Assembly (NCBI GenBank): GCA_045533905.1
Contig: JAZSIR010000008.1
Coordinates: forward strand, 55,623-119,622
Length of the DNA stretch: 64,000 bases
From: Clostridia bacterium
GTDB taxonomy: Bacteria > Bacillota > Clostridia > UMGS1883 > UMGS1540
Reading direction: 5' to 3'
Part shown: positions 3,611 to 54,370 of the stretch, piece by piece
How the letters are laid out: the number at the start of each line of letters is the position of its first letter
How positions within the stretch are numbered: position 1 is the first letter of the stretch
Translations under genes and position numbers: made by a program
Notes under the pieces: model-generated
Told to the model about the DNA's origin: nothing
Databases searched by the model: none
The model's input: the letters and a program-made list of their open reading frames with translations, nothing else

Positions 3611-6600
3611 ACTTCCGCCTCCATTCTGGCCCAGACTTCATCCGGTTTTTCCGGTGCAAGCTCGCGCCAGGCACTACCATCGTGCCGGCAAAGTGCCGCG
3701 AATTTACAAAATGCACAGGCAGATTCCGTCTGCTTCCGGTACGGCGAAATATCTACTCTGCCCTCGGAAAGCGCTGTCAAAAGCGCTGTGACTGTCTTTT
3801 TTACGTGTTTGGAAAGAACCGCAAACTGCGCCGGGCTTGCCACATTTCCGGTAATACCTTTATCGGAAATACCTGCCGGAATAATCTGCGAGGTTCTTTC
3901 GATGCCGTGGTCCATTGCTCTTAAAACCTCTTCATCCTCAAGGAGAAGCCCGTCAAGCTTGAATTCCTTGCGACGAAGCATTTCGATCACCTCGTCTGCC
4001 TCATTCGGAGAAGCATCCACATTCGGGTCGATAAGCCGGAAATACAAAATTCCGGCAGGCTTTGCTTCCCCGCCTATCTTTTCTTCATTTTCAGGCGCGC
4101 AGAGCGCAGAAAGATACACCGCAAGCTGCAGATTCAGGCCCGCGTACACATCACTGAGACGAAAGGTTTTCGCGCCGGATTTATAATCCAGAATCCGGAC
4201 AAGCGCGCCGCCGTCGGGAAGGTGCAGCGCTTCTGCGCGGTCAATCCGCCCGACGAGTTTCACCGCACCTCCGGTGGGAAGCGGAATGGAAAGCGGCATA
4301 AGGTCGCCGTTTTCCGCAAAGGAAAGTTCATAACCGATAGGCGAAAAAGTACATTTTTGCATATGATACGTGAGCGTGCGGACGGCCGTTTTGCAGGCAC
4401 GGCGAAGTCTCGCAAAAAGCTGGGCATACCGCGGCGAAACCTCCAGCATATAGGTACTGAGGCGTCTGTCAAGAAGCGGCACAATTTCGGAGAATTCCTT
4501 GTCGATGTACGCTTCCGTCACGGTTTGCCACGACTCGCCGTTTTCCGAAAGGCGCTTACCGAAAAGTTCCATAAAATCATGCAGAAAACGCCCGGCATCG
4601 GACGCCGCGGGCTTCATAATCTTTCGTTCTTTTGCATCGAGCATATAGGCGGCAAAATGTGAGAACGGGCAAGCCGCCATTTTTTCAAGGCGGGAAACAC
4701 TGCTGTGCCCCACGCCACCCATAAACGCACGCACAGTTTCCGTCGAAAGCCGACCGGCGCGGTTTTGGTAAGATAGGCTCGCGAAAGCCGAGGCCGTTTT
4801 TTCCGGCTCGTTTTCGAGGAGCCAACCGTATGCCGCGCGCATTGCATCGCTCACTGTACCGCGACGGATATCTTCCAGAAGATGGCCTATAACGGCGCCC
4901 GGTGCCGATATTTTTTCCGTATCCGAAAGCCCTAAAAGGAGGTTTCGTTCCTCCATTTCGGGAAAAAGCTCCTCCACGCGCCGCCAGATGCGCGACGGGC
5001 GGATGGACCCTCCTTCCATACTCGCGCACGGATAACTCAATTCCAGTATTTCAGATGGAATGGTAAGACATTTATAGATAAGGTGTTCTTCTTCGAAAAG
5101 TGTCTGATTCTCCGCATTCTTAAAGGCAAGCCCCGCCTCCGAAAGAGACATACGCTCCAGGTCGTTCAAAAGGCCGCCACGTTCGAGCGGTGCGGGAAAA
5201 ACGCCATCCTGCACGCCCAGAACCAAAAGCGCCTTTACGGCATAGCCCTTGATGCGGTCAATACTGCCGACGGAAATGCCGTCCTGTGCGGCGGGAATGA
5301 TACCTGTTTTCACTTCCCCGAGTGCGGTGCAAAGCACCTCGTAAAGACGCGCAATGCCGATTTCTTCGTCACCAAAGGCATCGCAAACGCCGTCAAGCGC
5401 ATCTATAAAATCATTATACACGCCTCTGTACTCTGCGGCAGTGGAGAAATCGCCTGCCTTTTCAAAAAGGCGCGAAAGCGCAAGAATACGGCGTTTCGCA
5501 TGCATTTCCTCAAGGAAACTGTAGATCGCCTCGCACTTTTCTGCGGCCGTTTTCCCGGTTTTGAGGTTATCTTCCAGGCGCAGAAGCGGCGCAATGATCT
5601 TGCGGCGGGTACTGTCTGCAAGAGCTGCATCCTCTGCCACTTCCCCTTCGCGCTCGGAATACGCCTCCGCACGGAGATTCCATTTTTCTTCATTTTTCCA
5701 GATGTCCCCGCGGATGCCGGTGGCAAGCACATAGTTTTCCAGTGCATCCACCGCATCGCTCTGAAGGCGTAAAAAGCCTGATTTTACATAGCGGAACACA
5801 CTTTCATAGGTGTAGCCCTTGGTGATAAGTTCAAGCGCGGAAAGCACAAAAACGGTGAAGGGATGCTCTAAAATGTTGATAGTGCGGTCCATAAAGAACG
5901 GAATGCCGTAGGCCGGAAAAACAGCGTCGATATACCGCTCGTACCCGCTTACATCGCGTGCCGTGACTGCAATATCACGGAATAAATACCTCTTCTCGCG
6001 GCAAAGCTCCAGAATACGGCGTGCGACATTCTGCACCTCTCCGAGGGGATTTTGCGCCGCCACAAGGCGGAGACCTTCCGGCTTTTCGGGATATTCCTTT
6101 GTCGGATATGTAAAGTAATTTTCTTCTAAAAATGCAAGCGGGCGTGTGACCTCCCGCGGCTTATGCAGCACAACCGGATCCTTAATTTCCGTGCCCGCAT
6201 CGCGCGCAATCTGCATCAGCTGCCGCACCATTTTGGCATGCAGTGTGAAGGCCGCGGATTTTTCATCCTCGGGCGCGTAGCAAACGGTTACGGTGATACG
6301 GATGCCTGCCCGGAGCATCGCGCCGATAGCCGCAAATTCGGAAGCATCAAAGCCGTCAAACCTGTCAAGATACACCTCTGTGCCATCTAAAACATCGGTT
6401 TTCGGCAAAACAGCGGCGAAACGATAGAGTTCATCGTCTCTGTCCGAAAATTTGGCCTCTGTCTTTTTTTCATACGCTTCAAATAAAAGCGCAAGGTCGG
6501 AAAGCTTGGCCTTCATATGCGCAAGATTTTCCCCTGCCGCACGAAGATCCGCACCCCCTATGCCATAGCGCTTCATTTCGCCGAAAAGCTTTGCGAGTGC

Positions 6601-10835: not shown

Positions 10836-10899
10836 ACTCTTCCCCTTTCTGAAGTTCCTTCTGTATAAAAAAAGCCGTACGCCCTTTTTTCGAAGCTGC

Positions 10900-11140
10900 A
10901 TTATAAGTGCGGTGATTTTGCAGCCGGCTGATGCCAGGCAACCTCACGGCACACGCAAATGACCGCTTATCGCTGCTTGGTTCCCCACCTGACGAGGTTC
11001 ACGGGTTTGCGTCGCGCAAGACCTGACCGTAAACACCGCTTACAAAAGCCGCCCGGATAACAACAGTCCTCCAAAAGGGCATCATCCCCGCTATAGCGGA
11101 TTGCGGGTACAGGGCACCGCTAACTCCCCGACTTGTACGA
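10900..11140 (-). ncRNA. ffs: Large (Bacillus/Clostridium-type) signal recognition particle RNA
   Basis: Minus strand has Alu-domain GGGGAGTTAGCGGTGCCCTGTACCCGCAATCCGCTATAGCGGG and domain IV GTCAGGTGGGGAACCAAGCAGC; usual position upstream of dnaX; 3' end approximate. Confidence 0.92.
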
Positions 11141-12466: not shown

Positions 12467-12477
12467 GAAGAAAACTG

Positions 12478-12566
12478 AATGCTCGGGGAGCTTCCAAAGA
12501 GGCTGAGAGGGAATTTATCATTCCGACCCGTGAACCTGATACGGATAATGCCGGCGTAGGAAAAGA
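12478..12566 (+). ncRNA. TPP riboswitch aptamer
   Basis: GGGGAGC...GGCTGAGAGG...GACCCGTGAACCTGATACGGATAATGCCGGCGTAGGAA matches the THI-box consensus; upstream of a ThiT-like gene. Confidence 0.96.
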
Positions 12567-12583
12567 GTAAAGTCATGAATTTC

Positions 12584-19975: not shown

Positions 19976-20020
19976 CACCAACAAAAAAAGGATGCATAAG
20001 CATCCTTTTTTTGTTGGTGA
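19976..20020 (-). terminator. Terminator of the tRNA operon
   Basis: TCACCAACAAAAAAAGGATGC-loop-GCATCCTTTTTTTGTTGGTGA inverted repeat. Confidence 0.8.
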
Positions 20021-20090
20021 TCCATCGGGGATTCGAACCCCGGACACCTTGATTAAAAGTCAAGTGCTCTGCCAACTGAGCTAATGGATC
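20015..20090 (-). tRNA. tRNA-Lys (TTT)
   Basis: Cloverleaf, anticodon loop CTTTTAA, GTTCGAATCC T-arm, encoded CCA. Confidence 0.96.
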
Positions 20091-20093
20091 ATG

Positions 20094-20169
20094 TGGCTGG
20101 GCTGGCTGGACTCGAACCAACGAATGCAGGAGTCAAAGTCCTGTGCCTTACCGACTTGGCTACAGCCCA
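20094..20169 (-). tRNA. tRNA-Gln (TTG)
   Basis: TGGGCTGTAGCCAAG..., anticodon loop CTTTGAC, encoded CCA. Confidence 0.96.
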
Positions 20170-20174
20170 ATAAG

Positions 20175-20252
20175 TGGGGTGGATAGTCGGATTCGAACCG
20201 ACGGCCTCTAGAGCCACAATCTAGCGCTCTAACCAACTGAGCTATACCCACC
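20175..20252 (-). tRNA. tRNA-His (GTG)
   Basis: Anticodon loop TTGTGGC, G-1 and C73, encoded CCA. Confidence 0.96.
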
Positions 20253-20256
20253 ATAT

Positions 20257-20333
20257 TGGCGCGCCTGAAGAGACTCGAACTCCTGGCCCACTGCTTAGAA
20301 GGCAGTTGCTCTATCCTGCTGAGCTACAGGCGC
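20257..20333 (-). tRNA. tRNA-Arg (TCT)
   Basis: GCGCCTGTAGCTCAG..., anticodon loop CTTCTAA, encoded CCA. Confidence 0.96.
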
Positions 20334-20342
20334 ATGCTATAT

Positions 20343-20416
20343 TGGAGCGGGTGATGGGAATCGAACCCACGCGATCAGCTTGGAAGGCTGAGATTCTACC
20401 ATTGAACTACACCCGC
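20343..20416 (-). tRNA. tRNA-Gly (TCC)
   Basis: GCGGGTGTAGTTCAATGG..., anticodon loop CTTCCAA, encoded CCA. Confidence 0.96.
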
Positions 20417-44626: not shown

Positions 44627-47600
44627 CTATTCTGCATGTAGCGCATCGTATATTTCCGTACCTATTTCCACATCGTACGGATTGTTTTTCGGCTTCCACG
44701 ACTTATCCGCCAGCTGCCAAAGAACCGCCTTCTGCTTCTTCGTCAGATTCCGGTTTACCCCATCTGCCGTCGGAAGCATATAGCCGCCATGGCCCATAGC
44801 GTCAAGCGCCGCCTGCACCTCAGGCTGCTTGTAACTTCCGTTCTCATCCGCATCATATTTGGGTAATGTTTCGAGATACGCAAAGTACGTCCCCGGCGCA
44901 ACGCCATACGTATTTCCCATCGTAAGCTTCTCATATGCCCCTTCTTCCATCATCGTGGCAAGTGCCGCCATCGTTTCCGCCTCCGGAAGCTTCGCCGCCA
45001 CCACCGTCTTGTATCTCTGCATTCGGCTCACCGTTTCTTCCCCCTCTTCCGGGGTAAGTTTTTCAAGGTCAATCGAGAGGCGTATTGCATTTTCGCTCGT
45101 AAGCCCTGCATCCGTAAACTCTCTGTAGCTTGAAATCACCGTGCCGCCGGCTTCCTGCACGGTGGCAAACGCTTCTTTTCCGGACATACCCGCCGCCGTC
45201 AATTCTTTATAAAGCTCGGTTTCTTTTGCAGAAAGACTCTTGAACCCACTCCGCACCCAGTTTCGAGCCGTCGGGAGCGTCGTCTTGCCGAACAGCATCG
45301 CGCGGCCGCCGTTTAGTGCCGTCTCCCACCATTCTCCGTCGTTGTAAACCGGATACTGCAGAATTTCGTTTCCGTCTGCATCTACCGTGTAGCTGCCGCC
45401 GCGAATCATCGCATCCGCCCCTTCGGCGATTTTCTTGATTTGTCCGCCTGCAGGAAGCATGTAAAGGAGTGGCTTCGAAAGTTCTTTTGCGAGCGTCTGC
45501 CTCTTTTTCTTCCCGTCCCACTTCTCATATAGGAGTGCCTTCCCCATATTAGATACACTTGGTAACGCGCTGCTTATCGGTACACGGCCACCACCGAACA
45601 GGACACCGCCCACAAACGGCAGCTCCTCCCCTATGTTCTTCACAAGGTTGGACGCGCCCTTCCAAAGACTTGGGTTTTCCTCGCGTAAATCTGTCTCCCC
45701 GTCCACAAGATCAGAAAGTGCTGGCAAACGGTACCCCGTAAAATCTCCGGACGCTTCGTTCAAAAGACTCAAAAGGTCCATCGCAGGTCTCCTTCCAAAC
45801 AGAAGCTCGTACAGCTCATCGAAAATCCACGCCCCGAGGAACAGTTTCAAAAGCGCCACCGCAAGCGCCGCTATCCCTCTTTCCCGCATTGCACGCGGCA
45901 TATCCTTGAAAAGGTATCGGTATTGGTTGTTTACCTCAAGCTGGAACTGTGTGAATAACTTCTGCAAGGGATTTGTAGCGTTGAACGCCGTCGGCATTTC
46001 GCCGCGGCTTCGTCCCGCCATCACGCCTCGCGCAAAAGCATCGGCATCCTCCATAGCCGCCGCCTCGCTCATACCTGCGTCGATATTCTGCAGATATTTC
46101 GCGCGCACAATCGAATCCGCCGTAAATGCGTCGATGTATTCCATGCCGCCCGAAAGCTTGTCCACAGCCTTCTGGTATCCGCGCCACGCTTTCCCTATGG
46201 GGTTCTTTTTCTCCGGTCCCTGTTCCCACATCTTCACGAGCGGGTCAGACCCTCTTCTGCTTGTAAGGAATGCGCTCTGCGAAACAAAGTCGTCCGTATG
46301 GTCGAAGTACGCCCTCGCTGTCTCTCCCATACCGCGCAGGAGGTACTTCGAGTCTACAAGGCCCCACGCCTGCGTAAGCGGTATGAAGTTTGTGAGCCAG
46401 GACGGGATGTTGAGCGACACCATCGCTCCGCTCACATTGCTGTTTACGCGCTGCATAATGTTATACATTTTCCGCCCTAAGGTGTACTCCATATCTCTGT
46501 CCTGTCGGCTCTTCTTGTTTGCAAGGAGATTGGTATATTCTTCGAGTTCCACCACGAAATTCGAAAGCGCAAACTTTGCATCCTCGTAGAGCTTCGCAAT
46601 AAGCGTATCCTTTTCGTCTCGCGGCAGATCCTCGCGTTCTTCGATTCTGTCCACCTGCTTCTGCACGCCCTCGTCAGATGCCGCGTATCGGATTTCCTTT
46701 GCAAGCGCGCGAAGCTTCTGTATGTTGTCCGTCTGGTAAATGACGCCCGAAACGCCCTCGATGTACTTATCAAAGCCTTCCACCGCATCATACACCGTGT
46801 TGAACCCGAGACGTTCCTTCGCATTCCCGAACCACTGAATCCCCGGGCGGAATAAATGTGTCATGCCGTTAATGGTAGTCGGCAGTGCCGAAACTGAAGT
46901 ATCAATCCCGAGTGCCCTGCCAAACTGTGCAAGAACGCCCTCTTGCCCCGGCTGAAAATGCGGGAAATACCCTCGTCTGTAATTTACAGGTTCGTACCCG
47001 TTCCTCACGCGCACCGCATTCATTTTTTCAAATAATGTGTCGTAGATTTCGCGGAACGTCTTCACCGCCTCGCGGATCTTCCCTTCGTCAAGGTTCGGGT
47101 TTTCCGCCCAAAGCTTTTTCACATTCCCTTCCCATTCGGAAAGTGTTTGCCCGTCGCGCTTCGCGTCCTTCGGCATTACCCGTAAAACCGTGATATTATC
47201 CTCCGCTTCGCCGAGGAGCTGCACCGCATGCGCTTCGGAAACAAGGTTACCGCTCGCCACCTTTCTCGAAAGCCCGAGCGCGCGTACCTTCTCGCGCATT
47301 TCCTCTTTAAGCTTCACAGCCTCCGCGTTCCCTTTATATACGGGATTCAGATATTTTGCGATAAGCGCCGCCGCATCCTCGCCCATTACGTCCCTGAAGT
47401 TTCTCTCCATCGTTTCTATGGAGTAGCGCAGACCTGCGAGAAACTTCTTGTCTTTCCAATTTTCCATACCGCCAAGGTATTCGCGCGCCTCTGCCGCAAG
47501 CCCTTCCTTGCGTCTTCGGTTCCAGTCGCGGATGCGCTTTGCATACTGCTCGTATTCTTTTTTCGCGTTGTAAACGGCCAGAATGTCTTTCACGTTGTCC

Positions 47601-50600
47601 GTTTCCGTGTTCAAAGACATGGGGTTTATCTCGCCGCGAAGAAGCTGCCCCACGCGCACCGTATCCTCATCGGTCAAAAGCGCCTTGCGCGTCACCTTGT
47701 CAAGGTTTCGCCGCGTCGCCTTGAGGTTCTTGTACGCCTCCTGCACTTCTTCCTTTGTCTCGATGCGTGCCTTCTTTTCTTCTTCCTTTTTCTCTGTCTT
47801 GCGGCCCTGCTCGTCAGAATACCGCTTCACACGCTTGAAATCCACCGCTGCAGAATTCAGCGCCGCATGGAATTCATCCTTTGCCGCCTCTTTGAACACT
47901 TCCGCATCTTCACCATGCGCTTCATCCAGCGTCTGTTCTGTTTTCCGTATGCCGTCTGCAATTTCAAGCATATGCATAAGCTGGTCTGCAGGATGTGTAA
48001 TCTCTACCGGGAAAAGCTCCGGTGCCATTTCCTCAAGCTCCATATACGCCGAGTCCACAGGGAGTCCCCCTTCGTTTACAAGGCGAAGCTTTCCAAAGGC
48101 ACGCTTTCGAAAATCTCCAAAATCCGCAATGCTCGTGCGGTCTTCTTCGGAGATGGTCAGCTGCGTACTGCGGAGGTAGTCGCGGATGTATTTGTATTGT
48201 TTATAGTAATCTTCGTTTACTATAAGCCCCTCTCTCCACGCTGCCTCAAAAAGCTCGTCCGCCTTCGTGCGGTCAATCGCGCCGCGGTCGAGATAATCTT
48301 TCGAAATATCTCGAACAATGCTCTGCAAGGTTTCCCTTTGCGCCTTGCCCGGCACACTTAAAATTTCACCAATGCGCCCAAGCAGATGGCTTTCCGCCTG
48401 CCGAAGCGCCGCTTCTGCTTTCACAGGGAGCTTGTCCTTGGCCATCTCCTCGGCACCTGCTGCAGAGTAGCTTACCTTTATTTTTCCTTCAGCTTCTGAA
48501 GTTTTTTCACCACTTCTTCCTCCGTGTCCGTGGTAGCCACTATTTTTAACGCTTCCAGCGCCAGTTCTTTGCTGATTTGGTCGAAACTCGTAAGCAGACG
48601 AATGGTATCGTCTGAATAGCTCTCCAGCCTCCTGCTGAATGCCTCTCCGCTCACCCTCATAAATTCTCCTCCTTACGTCATCAAGACTTGTTTCGTCATA
48701 TTCGTCTATCTTTATCACGCTTGTGATAACAGGGTTCTCGATAGTGCCTTTTGCAAATACAAGGACGTTATTAACGCCCTCCTGCGATGCATCGTATATA
48801 TTGCTGACGGGTATAATATATTCCCCCGCTTTGGATTTGGGAAATTCCGCCATGCCGCTTACCGCGTCTGCAAATTTGGAACGATAGTCTGTATTTTGCC
48901 CTGCTGTAAGAATATTGTTTGCCCTGGCCCAGCCGTAATCTCTATATTCCTGTTCAGTATAACGCGGCACCGCGGCGTCCTTTTCTCCAAGGTCTGCCTG
49001 CTCTAAACTCTCGGCATTGCCGCCGGCATCCGCACTTTCAGTATACTCCGAAACTTTGTAACTGTCAATAAACTGTTCGTCGCCTTTCCAAAAAGCCTTC
49101 TGCAGCTCCGCAAAAGCGTGGAGGTAATCATAGTCCATATTGGAAAGCACATTTGCCACAAACTCTTCTATAAGAGCCTCCTCGTTGTCTTCGACGATTC
49201 CATTATAATCCGTTGCTAATTTTTCAAGAACCTGCTTTCTTTCCGAAGCTGAAAGGCTGTTTGTTATAATATTTTTGACCTTTTGAACAAGACGAGTGTT
49301 GTATTGGTCATGGATTCTTTCATGGTCATTGATTTGTTCCGGCGTAAACCATTCATTGTCATACTGCACAAGGACAGTTTTTCTTCCATCTTTTCGAACA
49401 TACACACCCCGTGCCATTTTATGGTTGCCCTTACTGTCTTTCTTCGATAGGATTCTTGCCTTTCCGGTTATGAAAATTGTTTCGTCAATACCATTTCGCA
49501 GGTTTTCTGCTTCTATTTTCCGCATACGCGGCGTGTACTGTTCTTTCGGAATAACCTCGCACGCAGTATCGTATACTACTTTTTCCTCGGTAAGCCCAGA
49601 AGCTCTGAGAGTTTCGCAATACTTTCTTCGCTCACGACCGGCTTCTCGCCCCTCTCGATAGCGGCTTGTCCTTCCATCCATTTTTCTAACTGGCTTGCCG
49701 GAACTCGCACTGTGCGTCCGCTCGCCGCTTCCATCTGATAATACACTTCTTCCTTCATTGTTTGTGCTCCCTTCGATAGTTCTAAGTGAATGATTCTCCT
49801 CATTAGAAAACCGGACATAAGGACCAATTTTCCCGTTTTTTCTTGCAATTCCGTAATGACTTAGTACAGACTGTGGCAAAATTTCCGAAAACTTTTCCTT
49901 GACAATATCCAGCAACTTCTTTATACTTATAGTAGCAGGAGCTGATGTGGAATTGGCAGTTTTGCCATCCCCCACCGTTGCCTTATTGGCAAAAGTTCCT
50001 GCTATTTTTTTTGCGTTGCCTGAAGACAAAACACCATACTCTTTTAATTCGTGCTTTCCATCTTGTCTAATGTTAACAATGAAATATGCTGGATAACTTG
50101 CTGAATCTGATTCTCCGTACCCAAGTAAAACGTATGTCCGTACGGCGCCGGCCTCCCTTGGTCTAAGTTCATTTACATAAATTGCATTTTCAATATACTC
50201 ACCAATTTTTGTGTCCACGATGGCGTTGTCCTGATATCTTCGCACTAATCCATGATTGATTCCCTCTGTGCCCACGATAATTTCTGTGTCTGTGTCCTTG
50301 TTATGCACAAAAAAAGTATTGCCATCATTGTGCTCATTTAGCCTGCTTTTCACATTTTCTTTTGCTAACGCTCGAGCTTCTGCCCTGCTAAGAATTTGTG
50401 AATCATCCACGTCTGTAATTGCCATGTCCTTCTTATTGATAAGCGAATCGTAGTCAATTGGATGTAGTGGGTCCTCGCTTAATGCATTTCCGCTGGATAT
50501 GTTAATGGGTTCTTCATCTTGGCCGGAAATTGAATACTTTCGCCCATCGTCATACAGCATGCTTTCTCCCGCCATGCTCGCTTCCGCTTCAAGGATGTCC

Positions 50601-53600
50601 ATCCTCTCATCATATTCCGCTTCCGTTATGTTTTCGTCTGCATACTCTGTAGCCACCGCATTTTTGGCAGCCTGCGTCTCGGTATGTGCCGCATGATTTC
50701 GCGGTAAAAGTTCCTCCGCTGTCGGAAGCACATGCTTTGGGAAAAGCGTATTAACATTTGTTTCTTCCTGCGTATATTTTCCGCCCTTCCGCGCATAATC
50801 ATCATTGACAACAGTATTTTCTTGTGATATACTGGTGTCAGTAGAGGATTTGTCGTTAATAGTTGCCAACCACTTATACAGTTGGGGATTCACTTGCGAC
50901 AGATCCTCTCTTTTATATTTTTCGGTAACACCATCGCTGGAAATTAAGTTCTGCACGTAATTGTTGTCAGAGCTGAATATAGTCACTACTACATTATAAT
51001 CTTTGTTTTTCCCATCAATGTCCTTGGTACTGTTAAGTTCGACGGATACAATCCCATTATTGCCTCTTTCGGTTTCTACCGTGGCAAAAAGATTTAATCT
51101 TCCGCTTGCAAGTTGTATAATCGCATCGGGGCTTTTCAAAAATTCCGGCAGTTTTTTTGCAATATCTGCCCCCAGATTGTGATAGTGCCCCTTAAATACG
51201 CCATCTTTTCTTACCGCAAGATAAAGGGTGTTATAATTAACTATAACCTTCAAGTCTCTCGCATCTTCAACATGATCCAAAATAACTTTCGGCGTATTCG
51301 AGGAAACCTCCACAGCCGTTCTCTTATCTGCCAAATCTTTTGCCACTTCATCCGAAACAGTTAAAATGCTATCTACCGCGCCACTGTAATCTTCTATCAG
51401 CTGCGCGTCTTCTTTTTCTCCTATTGTAACTTCCATTGCGGCGTTCGTCGAACGCGTTCCCTTTGTGACACCCTTTTCCACGAACGGCGCGCTCTGTTGC
51501 ACTTCCGGGGCGGTATTTGTTTTTTCTGCAACATTTGATCTTGCGTCCGTCTGTAATGTCGCCCCTTCAATGTTTAACGCCGAAAAATCTCCTCTTTGCA
51601 CCGCCATAACCTGCGCTTTCAAGGCAGAGTTTTCTCCATAAAGCTTCGCATGCACGTCACTCGTATTTTGAACGGCAGAAGCAAGGATGCCGCGAAGATG
51701 CATCGCCGCTTCCGCGAGGACGTTCGCATTGGTTATTTCCGCCGAAGCCTTGCCCGTCAGCACATAGTCTGTAAGAAGCTGTACGGCATCGGCACCGCCT
51801 TCCGAAAGCATTGTATAAGCAGGTGCCTTTCCTGCTTGCAATACGCCCACAAATGCCTCGGCATATTTTTCTACGTATGCTCTGTCAAACTGACTGTCCG
51901 CAGATTTCAGTACGCCAAGATTCGCCGCGTATACCGCGCTGTATCCACCTCTGCCGCCTGTAATTCCCTCCATTTTATCAGCCGCGGCATCGGTAATTTG
52001 CAGAGCTGCCCCAAAAATATCGGCCGCGCCTCCGGACTCGTTCGTTGTGAGTTCCACATCTCCCGTGGTTTGATACATGCGATTCACAATAGCATTTGCA
52101 TCGCTTTCGCTTACGCCTTTTTCTACAAGAGCGTTTTTTCGAATTATCAGTTCATTTGCTATATTCGCAGCATTTCCCACGGTCAAAATTGTGGTTTCCA
52201 ATTGTTCCGCGTACGCCTGAGCATATTTGATAATTTCCTTTTGTTTCGCTTCGACCTGCTCGACCGTAGCTTTTTTTATGTCCAGTATTTCAATCTTTTG
52301 ATTGTCTGCCAGAAAAGCATTGAAACCTTCGCTGATATCGTTTAAAGCAGAAGCCATATGCCTTACATTACTTTTCTGTATCGGATACGTGGCCGTTTGC
52401 ATAATAAGCGACAGCAGCACGCCTTGTTTGCCGCTTTCCAAAATTTCCGAAAACGTTGCTGCTCGTGCATTTTTGTCAACCCCCGAAATACGTTTTAATT
52501 TCGGTTCTACGCCCCGCATCAGCATTTCCTCTACGCCCTCGCTTCCAAAATTAAGCATTTTGCGCAGTCCCTTGTTTTTAACATTAAACTCAATCAAGGC
52601 ATCCCCGAAATCCGTGCCTGCAAAGCCGCCAAAAATCTTTTCCGTCATTAGTTCGCCGAGACCGGAAAGTGTACCGTAAACCAAGGATTTCCCCGCATCT
52701 TTCGATAACTCGTATCCTTCCTTCGCACTGCCCCCGGCAGCACTTGTGCCAAACACAATGCTGGAAGGAGTGAAAAATTTCTTTGATGCAGCCTTCAAAG
52801 TAGAAAGAGTGGTATTTTGGGCAGCTTTTCGCGCGAGTTCAAGTTCGAGCAGCGGGCTCCCGGTTGCTGTCATTATTTCCGCAACTATCGGAATAACTAA
52901 ATTCCCTGCACTTTGTACCACCCCTCCTAGCTCTCTTACAGCCGGATGCGGAGTCATTCGTTCTTCTGCGTTTCGGCTCATAACGTCAGATATCCCATCC
53001 GCTTCAAGGTTTTGACCTGCAAATCCCAGGACAGAATCGGCGGCCTTATTCGGAGCAACACCTCCAATTTGAAGCCCTTGCCCCACAAGCCAACTGGCCC
53101 CCGCCGTCAAATATCTGCCCGAGTTTTCCACCGTCCCGACTACGCCTGCCGCCGCTTTTGCGGCAAGATATTCGGCATTAACTGCTACCGGCCCCAGCAC
53201 CGGGTGGTTTTTTGCAAATGCCTCTCGGTCGTTTCTGGATGCTTGCGCGTGTAATACATTGAACTCCGCATCGTCCTGCTCCGTTGAGAGTTTCTTCCCA
53301 CTCAGAAACCCGAAAATCTTCTCGCGTTTTGGATCATATATCTTTCTGCCATTTTCGTCGTGGTACCATGTATAATTATGCGCCTCTGCCCATTTGTCCA
53401 AATCGTCGAAAGAAAATTCCTCCGGGTTAATATTATACTTTGCAAAAACAGGGTTGTTTTTTATCCACTCTTGTCTTTCCCTTTCTGCCAGATGCGCTTT
53501 AACCCTCTCCAGAACGCTTCCTTCGTCTTCGTCCACCGGTGCATATGTGTCTAATTTACCGTTTTGCATTGCGTAATACGCCGCCGGGCTGATTTGCACC

Positions 53601-54370
53601 GTGTCTCCTCCGTCCGGCATCACTATGCTGATGCTCTTTTGCCTTGATGCTTGCTCGGCCAACGTAAAAGCTTCTCTGGGGTCCTTCGGTATTCCCTCCA
53701 TTTTGCTCGGCAGTCTCTCCGGAACCCGTATTATTGTTCCCAAAGCAGGGTTTTCGGCCAGCCAGTCCTCCGTAACTTTCTCCTCTTTTTCGTAGTATGT
53801 TTGAAATTCCCCAAGCGTGGAATTGTGGTATTCTATTTCATCTGCATACGTGTCATATGTTTTTTGGTATCCCTTTGCACTTGTATCATAAAGAGATCTT
53901 GTCTTTTCCAAAAGAGAACGATCTGCATCCGAGCCGGTTGTTCTGTATTTGGTTTGTAAATCCTTTGCAAGCGCCCCGAAAATATCTATTTTCTTTTTCA
54001 GCGTTTTTAAGGTGCCCTCGTTTTCTTCTATGCGTTTCTTGGAATCATCCAGGGCGCTTTCGTACCAGCTCGACAAAACTCCGATTTTCGGCGTATAAGG
54101 CTGCCCGTTTTCTTTAGCTTCGCGTCTTCTCGTGTCCTCTTCCATTTGCACTTTTTGCAGCATGGCTTTGCTGCCGTATCTTCTGCGCACGCGGCTGTCG
54201 AAGTCATCTCTCGTTTCCCTTTTGCTGTTGAAAGCAGAGTTTTTTGTCTCCGTCTTTTCTTTGGTCTCTTTCTTTTCCTCCGTTTCCGCTTTTTTGTTGT
54301 TCCGCACACGGCTTTCAAAATCATCGCGTATCTCCCATAAGGTAGCGTGATTGTAATTTTTGTATGCCAT
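44627..54370 (-). CDS. Giant (3247 aa) phage polyvalent / DNA-ejection-type virion protein
   Basis: Last gene of the virion module; Ala/Gly-rich helical N-terminal region, central cassette of compact domains including a HERIH...EE zincin motif, long helical C-terminal region with hydrophobic segments. Confidence 0.88.
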   Translation of the reverse strand: MAYKNYNHATLWEIRDDFESRVRNNKKAETEEKKETKEKTETKNSAFNSKRETRDDFDSRVRRRYGSKAMLQKVQMEEDTRRREAKENGQPYTPKIGVLSSWYESALDDSKKRIEENEGTLKTLKKKIDIFGALAKDLQTKYRTTGSDADRSLLEKTRSLYDTSAKGYQKTYDTYADEIEYHNSTLGEFQTYYEKEEKVTEDWLAENPALGTIIRVPERLPSKMEGIPKDPREAFTLAEQASRQKSISIVMPDGGDTVQISPAAYYAMQNGKLDTYAPVDEDEGSVLERVKAHLAERERQEWIKNNPVFAKYNINPEEFSFDDLDKWAEAHNYTWYHDENGRKIYDPKREKIFGFLSGKKLSTEQDDAEFNVLHAQASRNDREAFAKNHPVLGPVAVNAEYLAAKAAAGVVGTVENSGRYLTAGASWLVGQGLQIGGVAPNKAADSVLGFAGQNLEADGISDVMSRNAEERMTPHPAVRELGGVVQSAGNLVIPIVAEIMTATGSPLLELELARKAAQNTTLSTLKAASKKFFTPSSIVFGTSAAGGSAKEGYELSKDAGKSLVYGTLSGLGELMTEKIFGGFAGTDFGDALIEFNVKNKGLRKMLNFGSEGVEEMLMRGVEPKLKRISGVDKNARAATFSEILESGKQGVLLSLIMQTATYPIQKSNVRHMASALNDISEGFNAFLADNQKIEILDIKKATVEQVEAKQKEIIKYAQAYAEQLETTILTVGNAANIANELIIRKNALVEKGVSESDANAIVNRMYQTTGDVELTTNESGGAADIFGAALQITDAAADKMEGITGGRGGYSAVYAANLGVLKSADSQFDRAYVEKYAEAFVGVLQAGKAPAYTMLSEGGADAVQLLTDYVLTGKASAEITNANVLAEAAMHLRGILASAVQNTSDVHAKLYGENSALKAQVMAVQRGDFSALNIEGATLQTDARSNVAEKTNTAPEVQQSAPFVEKGVTKGTRSTNAAMEVTIGEKEDAQLIEDYSGAVDSILTVSDEVAKDLADKRTAVEVSSNTPKVILDHVEDARDLKVIVNYNTLYLAVRKDGVFKGHYHNLGADIAKKLPEFLKSPDAIIQLASGRLNLFATVETERGNNGIVSVELNSTKDIDGKNKDYNVVVTIFSSDNNYVQNLISSDGVTEKYKREDLSQVNPQLYKWLATINDKSSTDTSISQENTVVNDDYARKGGKYTQEETNVNTLFPKHVLPTAEELLPRNHAAHTETQAAKNAVATEYADENITEAEYDERMDILEAEASMAGESMLYDDGRKYSISGQDEEPINISSGNALSEDPLHPIDYDSLINKKDMAITDVDDSQILSRAEARALAKENVKSRLNEHNDGNTFFVHNKDTDTEIIVGTEGINHGLVRRYQDNAIVDTKIGEYIENAIYVNELRPREAGAVRTYVLLGYGESDSASYPAYFIVNIRQDGKHELKEYGVLSSGNAKKIAGTFANKATVGDGKTANSTSAPATISIKKLLDIVKEKFSEILPQSVLSHYGIARKNGKIGPYVRFSNEENHSLRTIEGSTNNEGRSVLSDGSGERTHSASSGKPVRKMDGRTSRYREGREAGRERRKYCETLRASGLTEEKVVYDTACEVIPKEQYTPRMRKIEAENLRNGIDETIFITGKARILSKKDSKGNHKMARGVYVRKDGRKTVLVQYDNEWFTPEQINDHERIHDQYNTRLVQKVKNIITNSLSASERKQVLEKLATDYNGIVEDNEEALIEEFVANVLSNMDYDYLHAFAELQKAFWKGDEQFIDSYKVSEYTESADAGGNAESLEQADLGEKDAAVPRYTEQEYRDYGWARANNILTAGQNTDYRSKFADAVSGMAEFPKSKAGEYIIPVSNIYDASQEGVNNVLVFAKGTIENPVITSVIKIDEYDETSLDDVRRRIYEGERRGIQQEAGELFRRYHSSAYEFRPNQQRTGAGSVKNSGYHGHGGRSGEKTSEAEGKIKVSYSAAGAEEMAKDKLPVKAEAALRQAESHLLGRIGEILSVPGKAQRETLQSIVRDISKDYLDRGAIDRTKADELFEAAWREGLIVNEDYYKQYKYIRDYLRSTQLTISEEDRTSIADFGDFRKRAFGKLRLVNEGGLPVDSAYMELEEMAPELFPVEITHPADQLMHMLEIADGIRKTEQTLDEAHGEDAEVFKEAAKDEFHAALNSAAVDFKRVKRYSDEQGRKTEKKEEEKKARIETKEEVQEAYKNLKATRRNLDKVTRKALLTDEDTVRVGQLLRGEINPMSLNTETDNVKDILAVYNAKKEYEQYAKRIRDWNRRRKEGLAAEAREYLGGMENWKDKKFLAGLRYSIETMERNFRDVMGEDAAALIAKYLNPVYKGNAEAVKLKEEMREKVRALGLSRKVASGNLVSEAHAVQLLGEAEDNITVLRVMPKDAKRDGQTLSEWEGNVKKLWAENPNLDEGKIREAVKTFREIYDTLFEKMNAVRVRNGYEPVNYRRGYFPHFQPGQEGVLAQFGRALGIDTSVSALPTTINGMTHLFRPGIQWFGNAKERLGFNTVYDAVEGFDKYIEGVSGVIYQTDNIQKLRALAKEIRYAASDEGVQKQVDRIEEREDLPRDEKDTLIAKLYEDAKFALSNFVVELEEYTNLLANKKSRQDRDMEYTLGRKMYNIMQRVNSNVSGAMVSLNIPSWLTNFIPLTQAWGLVDSKYLLRGMGETARAYFDHTDDFVSQSAFLTSRRGSDPLVKMWEQGPEKKNPIGKAWRGYQKAVDKLSGGMEYIDAFTADSIVRAKYLQNIDAGMSEAAAMEDADAFARGVMAGRSRGEMPTAFNATNPLQKLFTQFQLEVNNQYRYLFKDMPRAMRERGIAALAVALLKLFLGAWIFDELYELLFGRRPAMDLLSLLNEASGDFTGYRLPALSDLVDGETDLREENPSLWKGASNLVKNIGEELPFVGGVLFGGGRVPISSALPSVSNMGKALLYEKWDGKKKRQTLAKELSKPLLYMLPAGGQIKKIAEGADAMIRGGSYTVDADGNEILQYPVYNDGEWWETALNGGRAMLFGKTTLPTARNWVRSGFKSLSAKETELYKELTAAGMSGKEAFATVQEAGGTVISSYREFTDAGLTSENAIRLSIDLEKLTPEEGEETVSRMQRYKTVVAAKLPEAETMAALATMMEEGAYEKLTMGNTYGVAPGTYFAYLETLPKYDADENGSYKQPEVQAALDAMGHGGYMLPTADGVNRNLTKKQKAVLWQLADKSWKPKNNPYDVEIGTEIYDALHAE
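48478..48660 (-). CDS. Nested +1-frame small gene (60 aa) inside the giant ORF
   Basis: TAAGGAGG-AGAATTT-ATG; amphipathic helical product MRVSGEAF...EEEVVKKLQKLKEK; the host frame is a disordered-looking linker here. Confidence 0.65.
   Translation of the reverse strand: MRVSGEAFSRRLESYSDDTIRLLTSFDQISKELALEALKIVATTDTEEEVVKKLQKLKEK
49576..49758 (-). CDS. Nested +1-frame small gene (60 aa) inside the giant ORF
   Basis: AAGGGAG-CACAAACA-ATG; product MKEEVYYQMEAASGRTVRVPASQLEKWMEGQ...; the host frame is an R/G/S-rich linker here. Confidence 0.65.
   Translation of the reverse strand: MKEEVYYQMEAASGRTVRVPASQLEKWMEGQAAIERGEKPVVSEESIAKLSELLGLPRKK
49899..49927 (+). promoter_or_regulatory. Antisense sigma-A promoter inside the giant ORF
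   Basis: TTGACA(49899-49904)-N17-TATACT(49922-49927). Confidence 0.8.
49933..50012 (+). ncRNA. Candidate antisense small RNA A (three-way junction, T8 tail)
   Basis: TAGCAGGAGCT pairs with AGTTCCTGCTA; inner hairpins TGGCA/TGCCA (within GTGG/CCAC) and TTGCC/GGCAA; T8 tract. Confidence 0.65.
50805..50833 (+). promoter_or_regulatory. Antisense sigma-A promoter inside the giant ORF
   Basis: TTGACA(50805-50810)-N17-TATACT(50828-50833) with TGn extension. Confidence 0.8.
50840..50922 (+). ncRNA. Candidate antisense small RNA B (long stem-loop, U-rich tail)
   Basis: AGAGGATTTGTCG pairs with CGACAGATCCTCT (13 bp, one G-U); inner CCAAC/GTTGG; followed by CTTTTATATTTTT. Confidence 0.65.

Follow-up and report, generated by a model that had tools for sequence, protein, structure and literature searches.

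A predicted antisense small-RNA gene directly past the MuF_C domain of a giant prophage gene, and its recurrence after domain modules of polyvalent phage proteins

Why should a near-consensus promoter, a long hairpin and a U-rich tract stand in close succession on one DNA strand when the opposite strand carries an uninterrupted phage ORF (open reading frame) of 9.7 kb? This question is raised by a prophage that forms the right third of the window analyzed here, a stretch of 64,000 nucleotides (nt) from a Clostridia bacterium (GenBank assembly GCA_045533905.1, contig JAZSIR010000008.1, positions 55,623 to 119,622, forward strand). Together with a large terminase, a P22-like portal, an amidase and an internal virion protein, the prophage encodes a polyvalent-type protein of 3247 amino acids (aa), and opposite this giant virion-protein gene lies an element, here termed RNA B, which has the anatomy of a small-RNA gene. 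The current study shows that the majority of MuF_C and LPD3 modules in polyvalent phage proteins are followed by such promoter-hairpin-U-tract units. The parts of the locus are as follows:

44627-54370, minus strand: giant polyvalent-type prophage gene (3247 aa), host to the antisense units RNA A and RNA B
50933-51190, minus strand: coding region of the MuF_C domain (aa 1061-1146; Pfam E = 2.2e-7), after which the RNA B unit comes
50805-50810, plus strand: -35 hexamer TTGACA (6/6 match; on the sense strand xxT GTC AAx, Val-Asn)
50825-50833, plus strand: extended -10 TGaTATACT (TG at 50825-50826, TATACT at 50828-50833; 5/6 match)
50840-50922, plus strand: predicted antisense RNA B, about 80 nt (start A50840 and U-tract end both predicted)
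50843-50856, plus strand: 5' arm of the closing stem, paired with 50896-50909 (RNAfold)
50866-50885, plus strand: inner hairpin CCAAC / 10-nt loop / GTTGG (50866-70 with 50881-85; RNAfold)
50896-50909, plus strand: 3' arm of the closing stem, paired with 50843-50856 (RNAfold)
50910-50922, plus strand: U-rich tail CTTTTATATTTTT, a putative intrinsic terminator tail, kept in homologs

MuF_C is the sole Pfam domain that was found in the 3247-aa ORF, and its place was recovered again by a genome-wide domain search. According to the accessible text of Iyer (2017), MuF-C is a phage BECR-fold (PBECR) domain of "polyvalent proteins", predicted to be an RNase or to bind RNA, and the claim of an earlier reading made from the DNA letters only (the sequence-only reading), that the unit lies at the end of a nuclease-like domain, is therefore borne out. 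Together with its promoter, the unit is antisense to aa 1149-1188, directly past MuF_C, while the predicted RNA itself overlaps the giant ORF at aa 1149-1177. The promoter, as called by both a promoter scan and the sequence, matches the sigma-70/sigma-A consensus at 11/12 positions with a 17-nt spacer, and its -10 stands in the extended context tgTGaTATACT; the TRTG extended -10 motif is common in Firmicutes. The proposed TTGACA-N17-TATACT arrangement is thus confirmed, and an A at 50840 lies 7 nt downstream of the -10. Folding of 50838-50925 with RNAfold yields a closing stem of 14 bp, 3 of them G.U, as well as two further pairs (50840-41 with 50910-11), such that the 13-bp stem described earlier is part of a slightly longer one around the same CCAAC/GTTGG hairpin. 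The predicted fold (-31.6 kcal/mol) is far more stable than those of 200 dinucleotide shuffles (-14.7 +/- 2.7; z = -6.3, 0/200 as low). From these features, the element likely makes a stable hairpin RNA of about 80 nt from a host sigma-A/sigma-70-type promoter. The segment is single-copy in the 1.57-Mb genome. Rfam 15 gave no relevant match at E values up to 10 in 48800-51500, none of the seven matches at gathering score in the window (SRP [signal recognition particle] RNA, five tRNAs and a TPP [thiamine pyrophosphate] riboswitch) falls at the RNA B unit, and 11 related loci likewise gave no Rfam match. Several other known kinds of element were considered and rejected: an integron attC site, since its defining parts are absent, a single-strand origin or Frpo-type hairpin promoter, since the RNA B hexamers lie outside the hairpin, and a retron or diversity-generating retroelement, since there is no reverse transcriptase nearby.

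The relatives of RNA B, which bear upon its conservation, were gathered by peptide patterns outside the RNA region. The RNA B segment is present in 25 of 26 metagenome loci and in a viral contig with 84-87% nucleotide identity (the 26th locus ends before it), and outside the MuF_C module the protein identity of these relatives is 36% or undetectable. Among 18 distinct homologous sequences, which represent only three lineages, TTGACA, the 17-nt spacer and the TG are kept in 18/18, whereas the -10 is TATAAT, TACAAT or TATACT, with some promoters reaching 12/12. The stem differs at four positions between the three lineages and yet pairing is kept throughout, which includes one compensation from G-C to A-U as well as a G.U wobble that shifts or vanishes; the pairing that the sequence-only reading had looked for in homologs is therefore found. 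The inner hairpin is invariant across these three close lineages and the U-rich tail is conserved. When identical codons at conserved degenerate residues were counted, RNA B with its promoter exceeded the adjoining domain in each of three comparisons: 27/32 vs 59/117 (p = 4e-4), 27/30 vs 50/111 (p = 5e-6) and 29/31 vs 72/124 (p = 7e-5). Such codon comparisons show the promoter, hairpin and U-tract of RNA B to be conserved beyond what the protein code would demand. Resemblance to the remaining giant genes is lost 6 codons past the -35, and DNA and protein searches of GenBank phages returned no match to the window's own segment. In two of the homologous loci (L028 and L030 in our numbering), one-base indels in the T-run of the U-tract would shift the frame of the giant gene, and L030 matches the protein in several frames; these may be assembly errors or decaying genes.

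It is also evident that RNA B is not an isolated case. Among 87 genomes of the same bacterial order, a MuF_C search yielded 22 domain matches in 18 genomes, and the antisense strand at each domain end was examined with a script that called a unit where a promoter (9/12 or better) was accompanied by a U-rich tail and by a closed stem, 7 bp or longer, that spans 40-129 nt. An antisense promoter-hairpin-U-tract unit follows 20 of the 22 MuF_C ends, 18 being called by the script (promoters at least 10/12) and 2 by eye. The four script misses comprise two real units with a 6-bp closing stem, to which the script is blind, one contig that ends 28 nt past the domain, and one broken gene below the cut-off. 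Ends of LPD3 domains behave similarly, with a unit in 20/26, one of which (L071) is probably false; this count covers 26 of the 27 listed places, L090 being left out. Beyond the order, MuF_C was found in 3 of 400 other genomes sampled from the phylum, all three with a unit. RNA B conforms to the positional rule for MuF_C, in that it is antisense, about 90-130 nt past the domain end and has its promoter in reading phase 0 (defined below); its -35 lies at +128 nt from the end of a MuF_C match that stops at profile position 91 of 103. The suggested tie of units to particular domains is upheld, since they go with particular domain families. However, units are as frequent at LPD3, whose function is unknown, as at the RNase-fold domain, and the link is therefore with domain modules generally and not with nucleases.

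Before function is considered, chance has to be weighed. Promoter-like and hairpin-like sequence could arise without function in foreign DNA of lower G+C content; the RNA B region, with a G+C of 0.45-0.47, lies below its neighbors in this respect, and spurious intragenic promoters are a known feature of foreign DNA. The controls contradict this explanation. In 300 synonymous-codon shuffles of the giant gene, antisense matches of at least 11/12 average 0.09 and the observed 2 are reached in 0/300. Random antisense windows in genes of this genome contain a unit in 10/2000 cases, 0 of them with a promoter of at least 11/12, and terminase-domain ends in prophages of the same order in 0/30. The conservation and synonymous constraint described above, as well as the covariation in the wider family, speak against chance too, and we regard it as so improbable as to be virtually negligible. 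The sequence-only reading had reached the same verdict from a rough estimate, and its conclusion stands, although its figure was more than tenfold too small, as it had been set for an exact 12-mer while the match is 11/12.

The same promoter pattern is informative across the genome. It occurs 212 times at 11/12 or better in the 1.57 Mb, with 177 matches intergenic, 167 with a 17-nt spacer and 96 with the TG, and the intergenic preponderance indicates that it marks real promoters in this organism. The genes used for the intragenic/intergenic split were crude longest-ORF calls, and five "antisense intragenic" promoters were set aside, since they precede a ribosome-binding site and an ATG within mis-called ORFs. 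With these removed, the four best-built antisense intragenic units of the genome fall in two polyvalent-type genes, whereas three weaker antisense matches in other genes (-10 TATAAG or AATAAT) lack a closed unit. Elsewhere in the window, matches precede ordinary genes, a TPP riboswitch and a tRNA cluster, and as the latter two each begin just downstream of an 11/12 match, the pattern is predictive here. The RNA genes concerned are:

10875-11140, 12474-12580 and 20018-20416: ordinary RNA genes (SRP RNA, TPP riboswitch, five tRNAs)

A second unit had been predicted after the next domain of the giant gene, and this is indeed found, together with a promoter-like site on the sense strand:

49899-50012, plus strand: sister unit RNA A, TTGACA-N17-TATACT, closed three-hairpin RNA, T8 tail
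49040-49068, minus strand: sense-strand promoter-like TTGACA-N17-TATACT inside the giant gene (promoter scan)

RNA A is of the same build as RNA B, has a predicted fold of -34.7 kcal/mol (z = -5.4), and comes after a weak LPD3-like match (E = 0.0028, below the cut-off). Its domain has no relative in the viral contigs and RNA A itself has no DNA match in 21 family genomes. As for the sense-strand site, only 0.7% of 300 codon shuffles of the giant gene give one. Comparable sense sites occur in the genome's second polyvalent gene (G000:C11, minus strand, 33354), where the site is back to back with an antisense unit, and twice, as repeated sites at 4095 and 4392, in locus L008. Giant ORFs may also be transcribed in segments. 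The second polyvalent gene lies on another contig:

7086-11183 of L034 (G000:C11:24000-42000), minus strand: second polyvalent-type gene of the same genome, PBECR3 + LPD3, 1365 aa

It adjoins three serine recombinases and bears three antisense units, which follow PBECR3, LPD3 and an unnamed segment, respectively, with two promoters of 11/12 and one of 9/12 plus TG. Denser arrays were encountered as well: the giant gene of one viral contig (L001, 3500-6900, minus strand) has five antisense units in 3.3 kb and none in the sense direction, and L004 has four antisense promoters of the same type. Another genus provides an orphan unit that lies between two host genes (L032/L035, G002:C14; about L032:1500-1630). 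It has an intact TTGACA-N17-TGaTATAGT promoter and a hairpin with z = -7.1, and it stands opposite a stop-free stretch of 139 codons, the remnant of a domain end, in which a start codon appears only late. This RNA gene seems to have outlived its host gene.

One of the key features that unites the units is their register with the protein code. Of the 59 distinct units, those that fall in a single open frame number 53, and they share one reading phase without exception. In this phase (phase 0), the complement of the -10 supplies the codons Axx and NTA, TGTGA within the extended -10 is read as S-Q, and the -35 as xxT-GTC-AAx, so that the linker peptide of in-frame units, approximately x-S-I-S-Q-x4-V-N/K, is the translation of the extended -10 and the -35. 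This raises the possibility that the conserved block is not a promoter at all, but rather a linker, a recombination joint or a peptide motif (x-S-I-S-Q-x4-V-N) that serves domain shuffling or proteolysis, with promoter likeness as a by-product. The common phase and the similar peptide pattern of 53/53 units would be expected in that case, as would the break in homology between giant genes 6 codons past the -35. However, the two residues encoded beneath the -10 differ among units (S, N, I, T, K, M or R at the first, I, V or L at the second), whereas the third base of the NTA second codon and the GTC codon for Val never change, such that selection is on the DNA motif and not on the peptide. A peptide motif also leaves the stem and the U-tract unexplained, and a primary transcription start is mapped at the E. 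coli counterpart described below. We therefore consider such a peptide or joint very improbable. The shared phase suggests a common origin of the promoter-linker part of the units. This qualifies the earlier view that RNA A and RNA B are unlike in sequence: their RNA bodies share none, but their promoters share the reading phase, which favors a common promoter-linker origin rather than full independence.

The RNA part of the units also exhibits a shared fold. For the statistics, 18 MuF_C-linked RNAs, not including RNA B, were aligned over the RNA part alone, as MAFFT, when given whole units, did not bring the closing stems into register, and only 3 pairs were then obtained with RNAalifold. The resulting consensus has 15 pairs, 12 of which show compensatory change. 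Paired cells amount to 88.1% vs 74.3 +/- 1.6% in shuffles and the covariation score is 0.52 vs 0.27, neither being reached in 500 shuffles (0/500 for both), while slid-register controls are at most 57% paired. The covariation that the sequence-only reading had called for across homologous domains is therefore present in these 18 RNAs, but it is thin within RNA B's own sublineage. The paired cells include 29 G.U and 6 A.C, and although the sequences are related and the counts thus not independent, the excess of G.U indicates that selection has acted on the fold in the antisense transcript, as opposed to the mRNA or a DNA cruciform. This bears upon a further explanation, namely that the units exert their effect through DNA or transcription, in that strong antisense promoters with a terminator close behind would be polymerase roadblocks or points of interference that dampen sense transcription, with the RNA being incidental. 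In its favor, conservation is strictest in the promoters, where the 53 in-frame units never depart from T-12, A-11, T-7 and the G of TTGACA at synonymous sites, and a single gene can hold several units, such as the five in 3.3 kb of L001 or the three in the genome's second polyvalent gene. Besides the strand preference and covariation of the hairpin, it is contradicted by the structure itself, as a mere terminator needs neither a closing stem of up to 14 bp nor a conserved inner hairpin, and by the accumulation of an RNA in E. coli. A purely transcriptional role thus appears distinctly unlikely.

Another possibility, which takes up the idea of the sequence-only reading that the RNA may bind or neutralize its own domain, is that RNA B serves the adjacent domain as a protein-binding decoy, inhibitor or chaperone, in the manner of a type III antitoxin. 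The BECR fold of MuF_C, a predicted RNase or RNA-binding domain in the accessible part of Iyer (2017), would fit such a role, as would the fact that the units follow particular domain families with family-specific RNA bodies and that an apical stem which covaries and has a 7-nt loop is common to the MuF_C-linked RNAs. Yet LPD3 has no known RNA link and is followed by units as often. Moreover, the first Leu encoded beneath the conserved apical loop persists as a residue although the third base of its codon changes, so that the protein code explains much of the loop conservation, and neither tandem repeats nor processing sites are found. We judge protein binding of this kind to be quite improbable. 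RNA B itself lacks the apical G+C stem and 7-nt loop (AAUUGGA) of the family and instead has CCAAC / 10-nt loop / GUUGG. Together with its close homologs and two distant units of another genus (L032, L037), it constitutes a divergent sublineage with a different inner hairpin.

The family extends to a locus with existing transcript data. When a typical MuF_C was used as query, 186 GenBank phage records were retrieved, all of them Stx (Shiga toxin)-type phages of E. coli or Shigella. In VT2-Sakai/Sp5, an Stx2 prophage of E. coli O157:H7 Sakai, MuF_C occupies aa 1750-1839 of ECs1242 (2793 aa), which also includes LPD38, LPD5 and LPD1, and which is needed for infectious particles according to the accessible text of Mondal (2016). 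At the homologous place and in the same phase, ECs1242 has a unit with an 8/12 promoter, a distance of 7 nt, an 11-12 bp closing stem, an apical hairpin and a U-rich tail; its promoter is too weak for the unit script, which is blind to it. An antisense primary start with an enrichment of 24.07 has been mapped in ECs1242 at 1301472 on the minus strand (Sy 2020, Dataset S1). The 50 nt printed upstream of this start are exactly the predicted ECs1242 promoter, and the start is the A 7 nt after the -10. Further starts in the gene include one more antisense start at 1300538 (enrichment 9.4) and internal sense starts at 1296421 and 1300637 (Sy 2020, Dataset S1). The orphan Hfq site EcOnc36 covers 1301433-1301515 on the same strand, having passed in 5 experiments with no Northern entered (Tree 2014, Table S2), and ECs1242 ranks 17th among Hfq-bound coding sequences, with antisense reads far above sense reads in 5/5 samples (Tree 2014, Table S1A).

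EcOnc36 resembles RNA B in being antisense within a giant polyvalent virion-protein gene, directly past MuF_C, in the same phase and with the same architecture. In contrast to RNA B, its promoter is weak (8/12), its apical hairpin (GGGC / 7-nt loop / GCCC) is common to most Clostridial MuF_C units, and it is catalogued as an orphan Hfq site without a link to domains or to an RNA family. A covariance model of the 18 members (R1) recovers members that it had not seen before, and its matches include the Sakai locus (E = 0.014), L044, L050/L004 and L093, but not RNA B. As a result, the link between RNA B and EcOnc36 rests on domain, position, phase and architecture rather than on detectable RNA homology.

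The recovery of EcOnc36 as an Hfq-bound RNA makes it conceivable that RNA B is a real RNA that acts in trans, on host transcripts or other phage transcripts, and that the giant gene is simply a convenient and mobile parking place. Other small RNAs of Stx phages act in trans, as far as the accessible text of two studies goes (Tree 2014; Sy 2020), and the orphan unit of genome G002, kept in a start-less gene remnant, hints at a use independent of the host gene. On the other hand, Hfq was not found in this host genome (95.5% complete), and RNA bodies that differ completely between domain families and lineages fit a cis target better than a trans target held in common. Action in trans is accordingly an unlikely explanation in our assessment.

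We consider it somewhat probable that RNA B acts in cis, as an antisense RNA by which expression of the giant gene is kept in check. Presumably, RNA B would be made constitutively in the lysogen and would pair perfectly with the giant-gene transcript at the domain boundary; the duplex could then be cut by RNase III, which is encoded in the host genome, or could block ribosomes. Leaky expression of a large, probably toxic effector protein would thereby be held below a threshold, until late lytic transcription out-titrates the RNA. The place of the unit within the end of a domain module would let it accompany that module in the shuffling of domains between phages. Several observations weigh against this proposal. 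Firstly, RNA B lies 3.4 kb downstream of the start codon and cannot block initiation, and since one RNA at the 5' end would be enough to silence the gene, an array is not obviously explained by silencing. Secondly, the closing stem encloses 39 nt including the inner hairpin, which is non-canonical for a terminator, and the terminator scan made no call here, albeit because its loop limit is 3-8 nt. Thirdly, model R1 gave no hit at 50840-50922 at E values up to 1, and within the RNA B sublineage covariation amounts to 3 double-change pairs in 6 sequences, the distant members L032 and L037 align poorly on the 3' side, and part of the sequence conservation is due to the protein, owing to a Q-L motif under the apical loop. 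Lastly, no Hfq was found in the host, so that the Hfq link of the E. coli RNA may not transfer, and the target of EcOnc36 is given as unknown in the accessible part of a 2021 review, as is its function.

Since arrays are not needed for simple silencing, there is room both for the rivals above and for a broader proposal, in which the polyvalent proteins of phages and mobile elements would be built from self-contained cassettes, each effector domain being equipped at its 3' end with a small-RNA gene of its own, encoded on the other strand, for safety or immunity. Such genes would be the RNA counterpart of toxin-immunity pairs, shuffled along with the domain from phages of gut Clostridia to Shiga-toxin phages. 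We put this forward tentatively, as an idea that is rather improbable.

Comparison with known systems places RNA B in a familiar context, but with distinct features. Lambda OOP, to which other cis-antisense RNAs of phages are similar, is a constitutive antisense RNA of about 77 nt, transcribed between a promoter and a terminator of its own; the RNA is complementary to the 3' portion of a phage gene and leads to cleavage of the duplex. Like OOP, RNA B would be a short antisense RNA with its own promoter, opposite part of a phage gene; OOP, however, is a single unit opposite a regulatory gene, while here in-frame arrays, one unit per domain module, are found in a structural/effector gene. The antisense RNAs of type I toxin-antitoxin systems, which include the nuclease-toxin pairs SymR/SymE and RalA/RalR, are similarly small, structured, constitutively made and encoded on mobile elements opposite a gene whose product is probably harmful to its carrier. 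In contrast to these, the target is an ORF of 3247 aa and not a small hydrophobic peptide, and RNA B lies well inside the 9.7-kb ORF without overlapping its ribosome-binding site. Type III (ToxI-like) RNAs are same-strand tandem repeats upstream of the toxin, whereas RNA B is a single unit on the opposite strand. A further parallel is offered by the polymorphic-toxin/immunity cassettes and polyvalent proteins as portrayed in the accessible text of Iyer (2017), with which RNA B shares the shuffling of effector domains and a unit that moves with the module; here, though, the role of a downstream immunity protein is taken by an RNA gene that lies within the ORF itself, on its other strand. The words "antisense" and "promoter" each occur 0 times in the main text of that paper. 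A full-text literature search, preprint supplements lying outside its scope, found no description of antisense units in polyvalent genes, and for EcOnc36 the full-text literature yielded only the review that lists its target. Cis-antisense RNAs of phages are thus a known kind and one member of the present group, EcOnc36, has already been seen in screens, while the RNA family, its tie to polyvalent domains, the in-frame embedding and the arrays are not previously described in the literature found.

No proteins of phages and conjugative elements are larger or more mosaic than the polyvalent ones, and in-frame antisense RNA genes after most of their domain modules would constitute an unnoticed regulatory layer of polyvalent genes. 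A phase-0 consensus antisense promoter, succeeded by a closed hairpin and then by a U-tract, makes a simple signature with which further RNAs of this kind could be sought and the limits of domains in giant phage genes recognized. For the Shiga-toxin phages, the units would suggest a function to look for in the orphan RNA EcOnc36.

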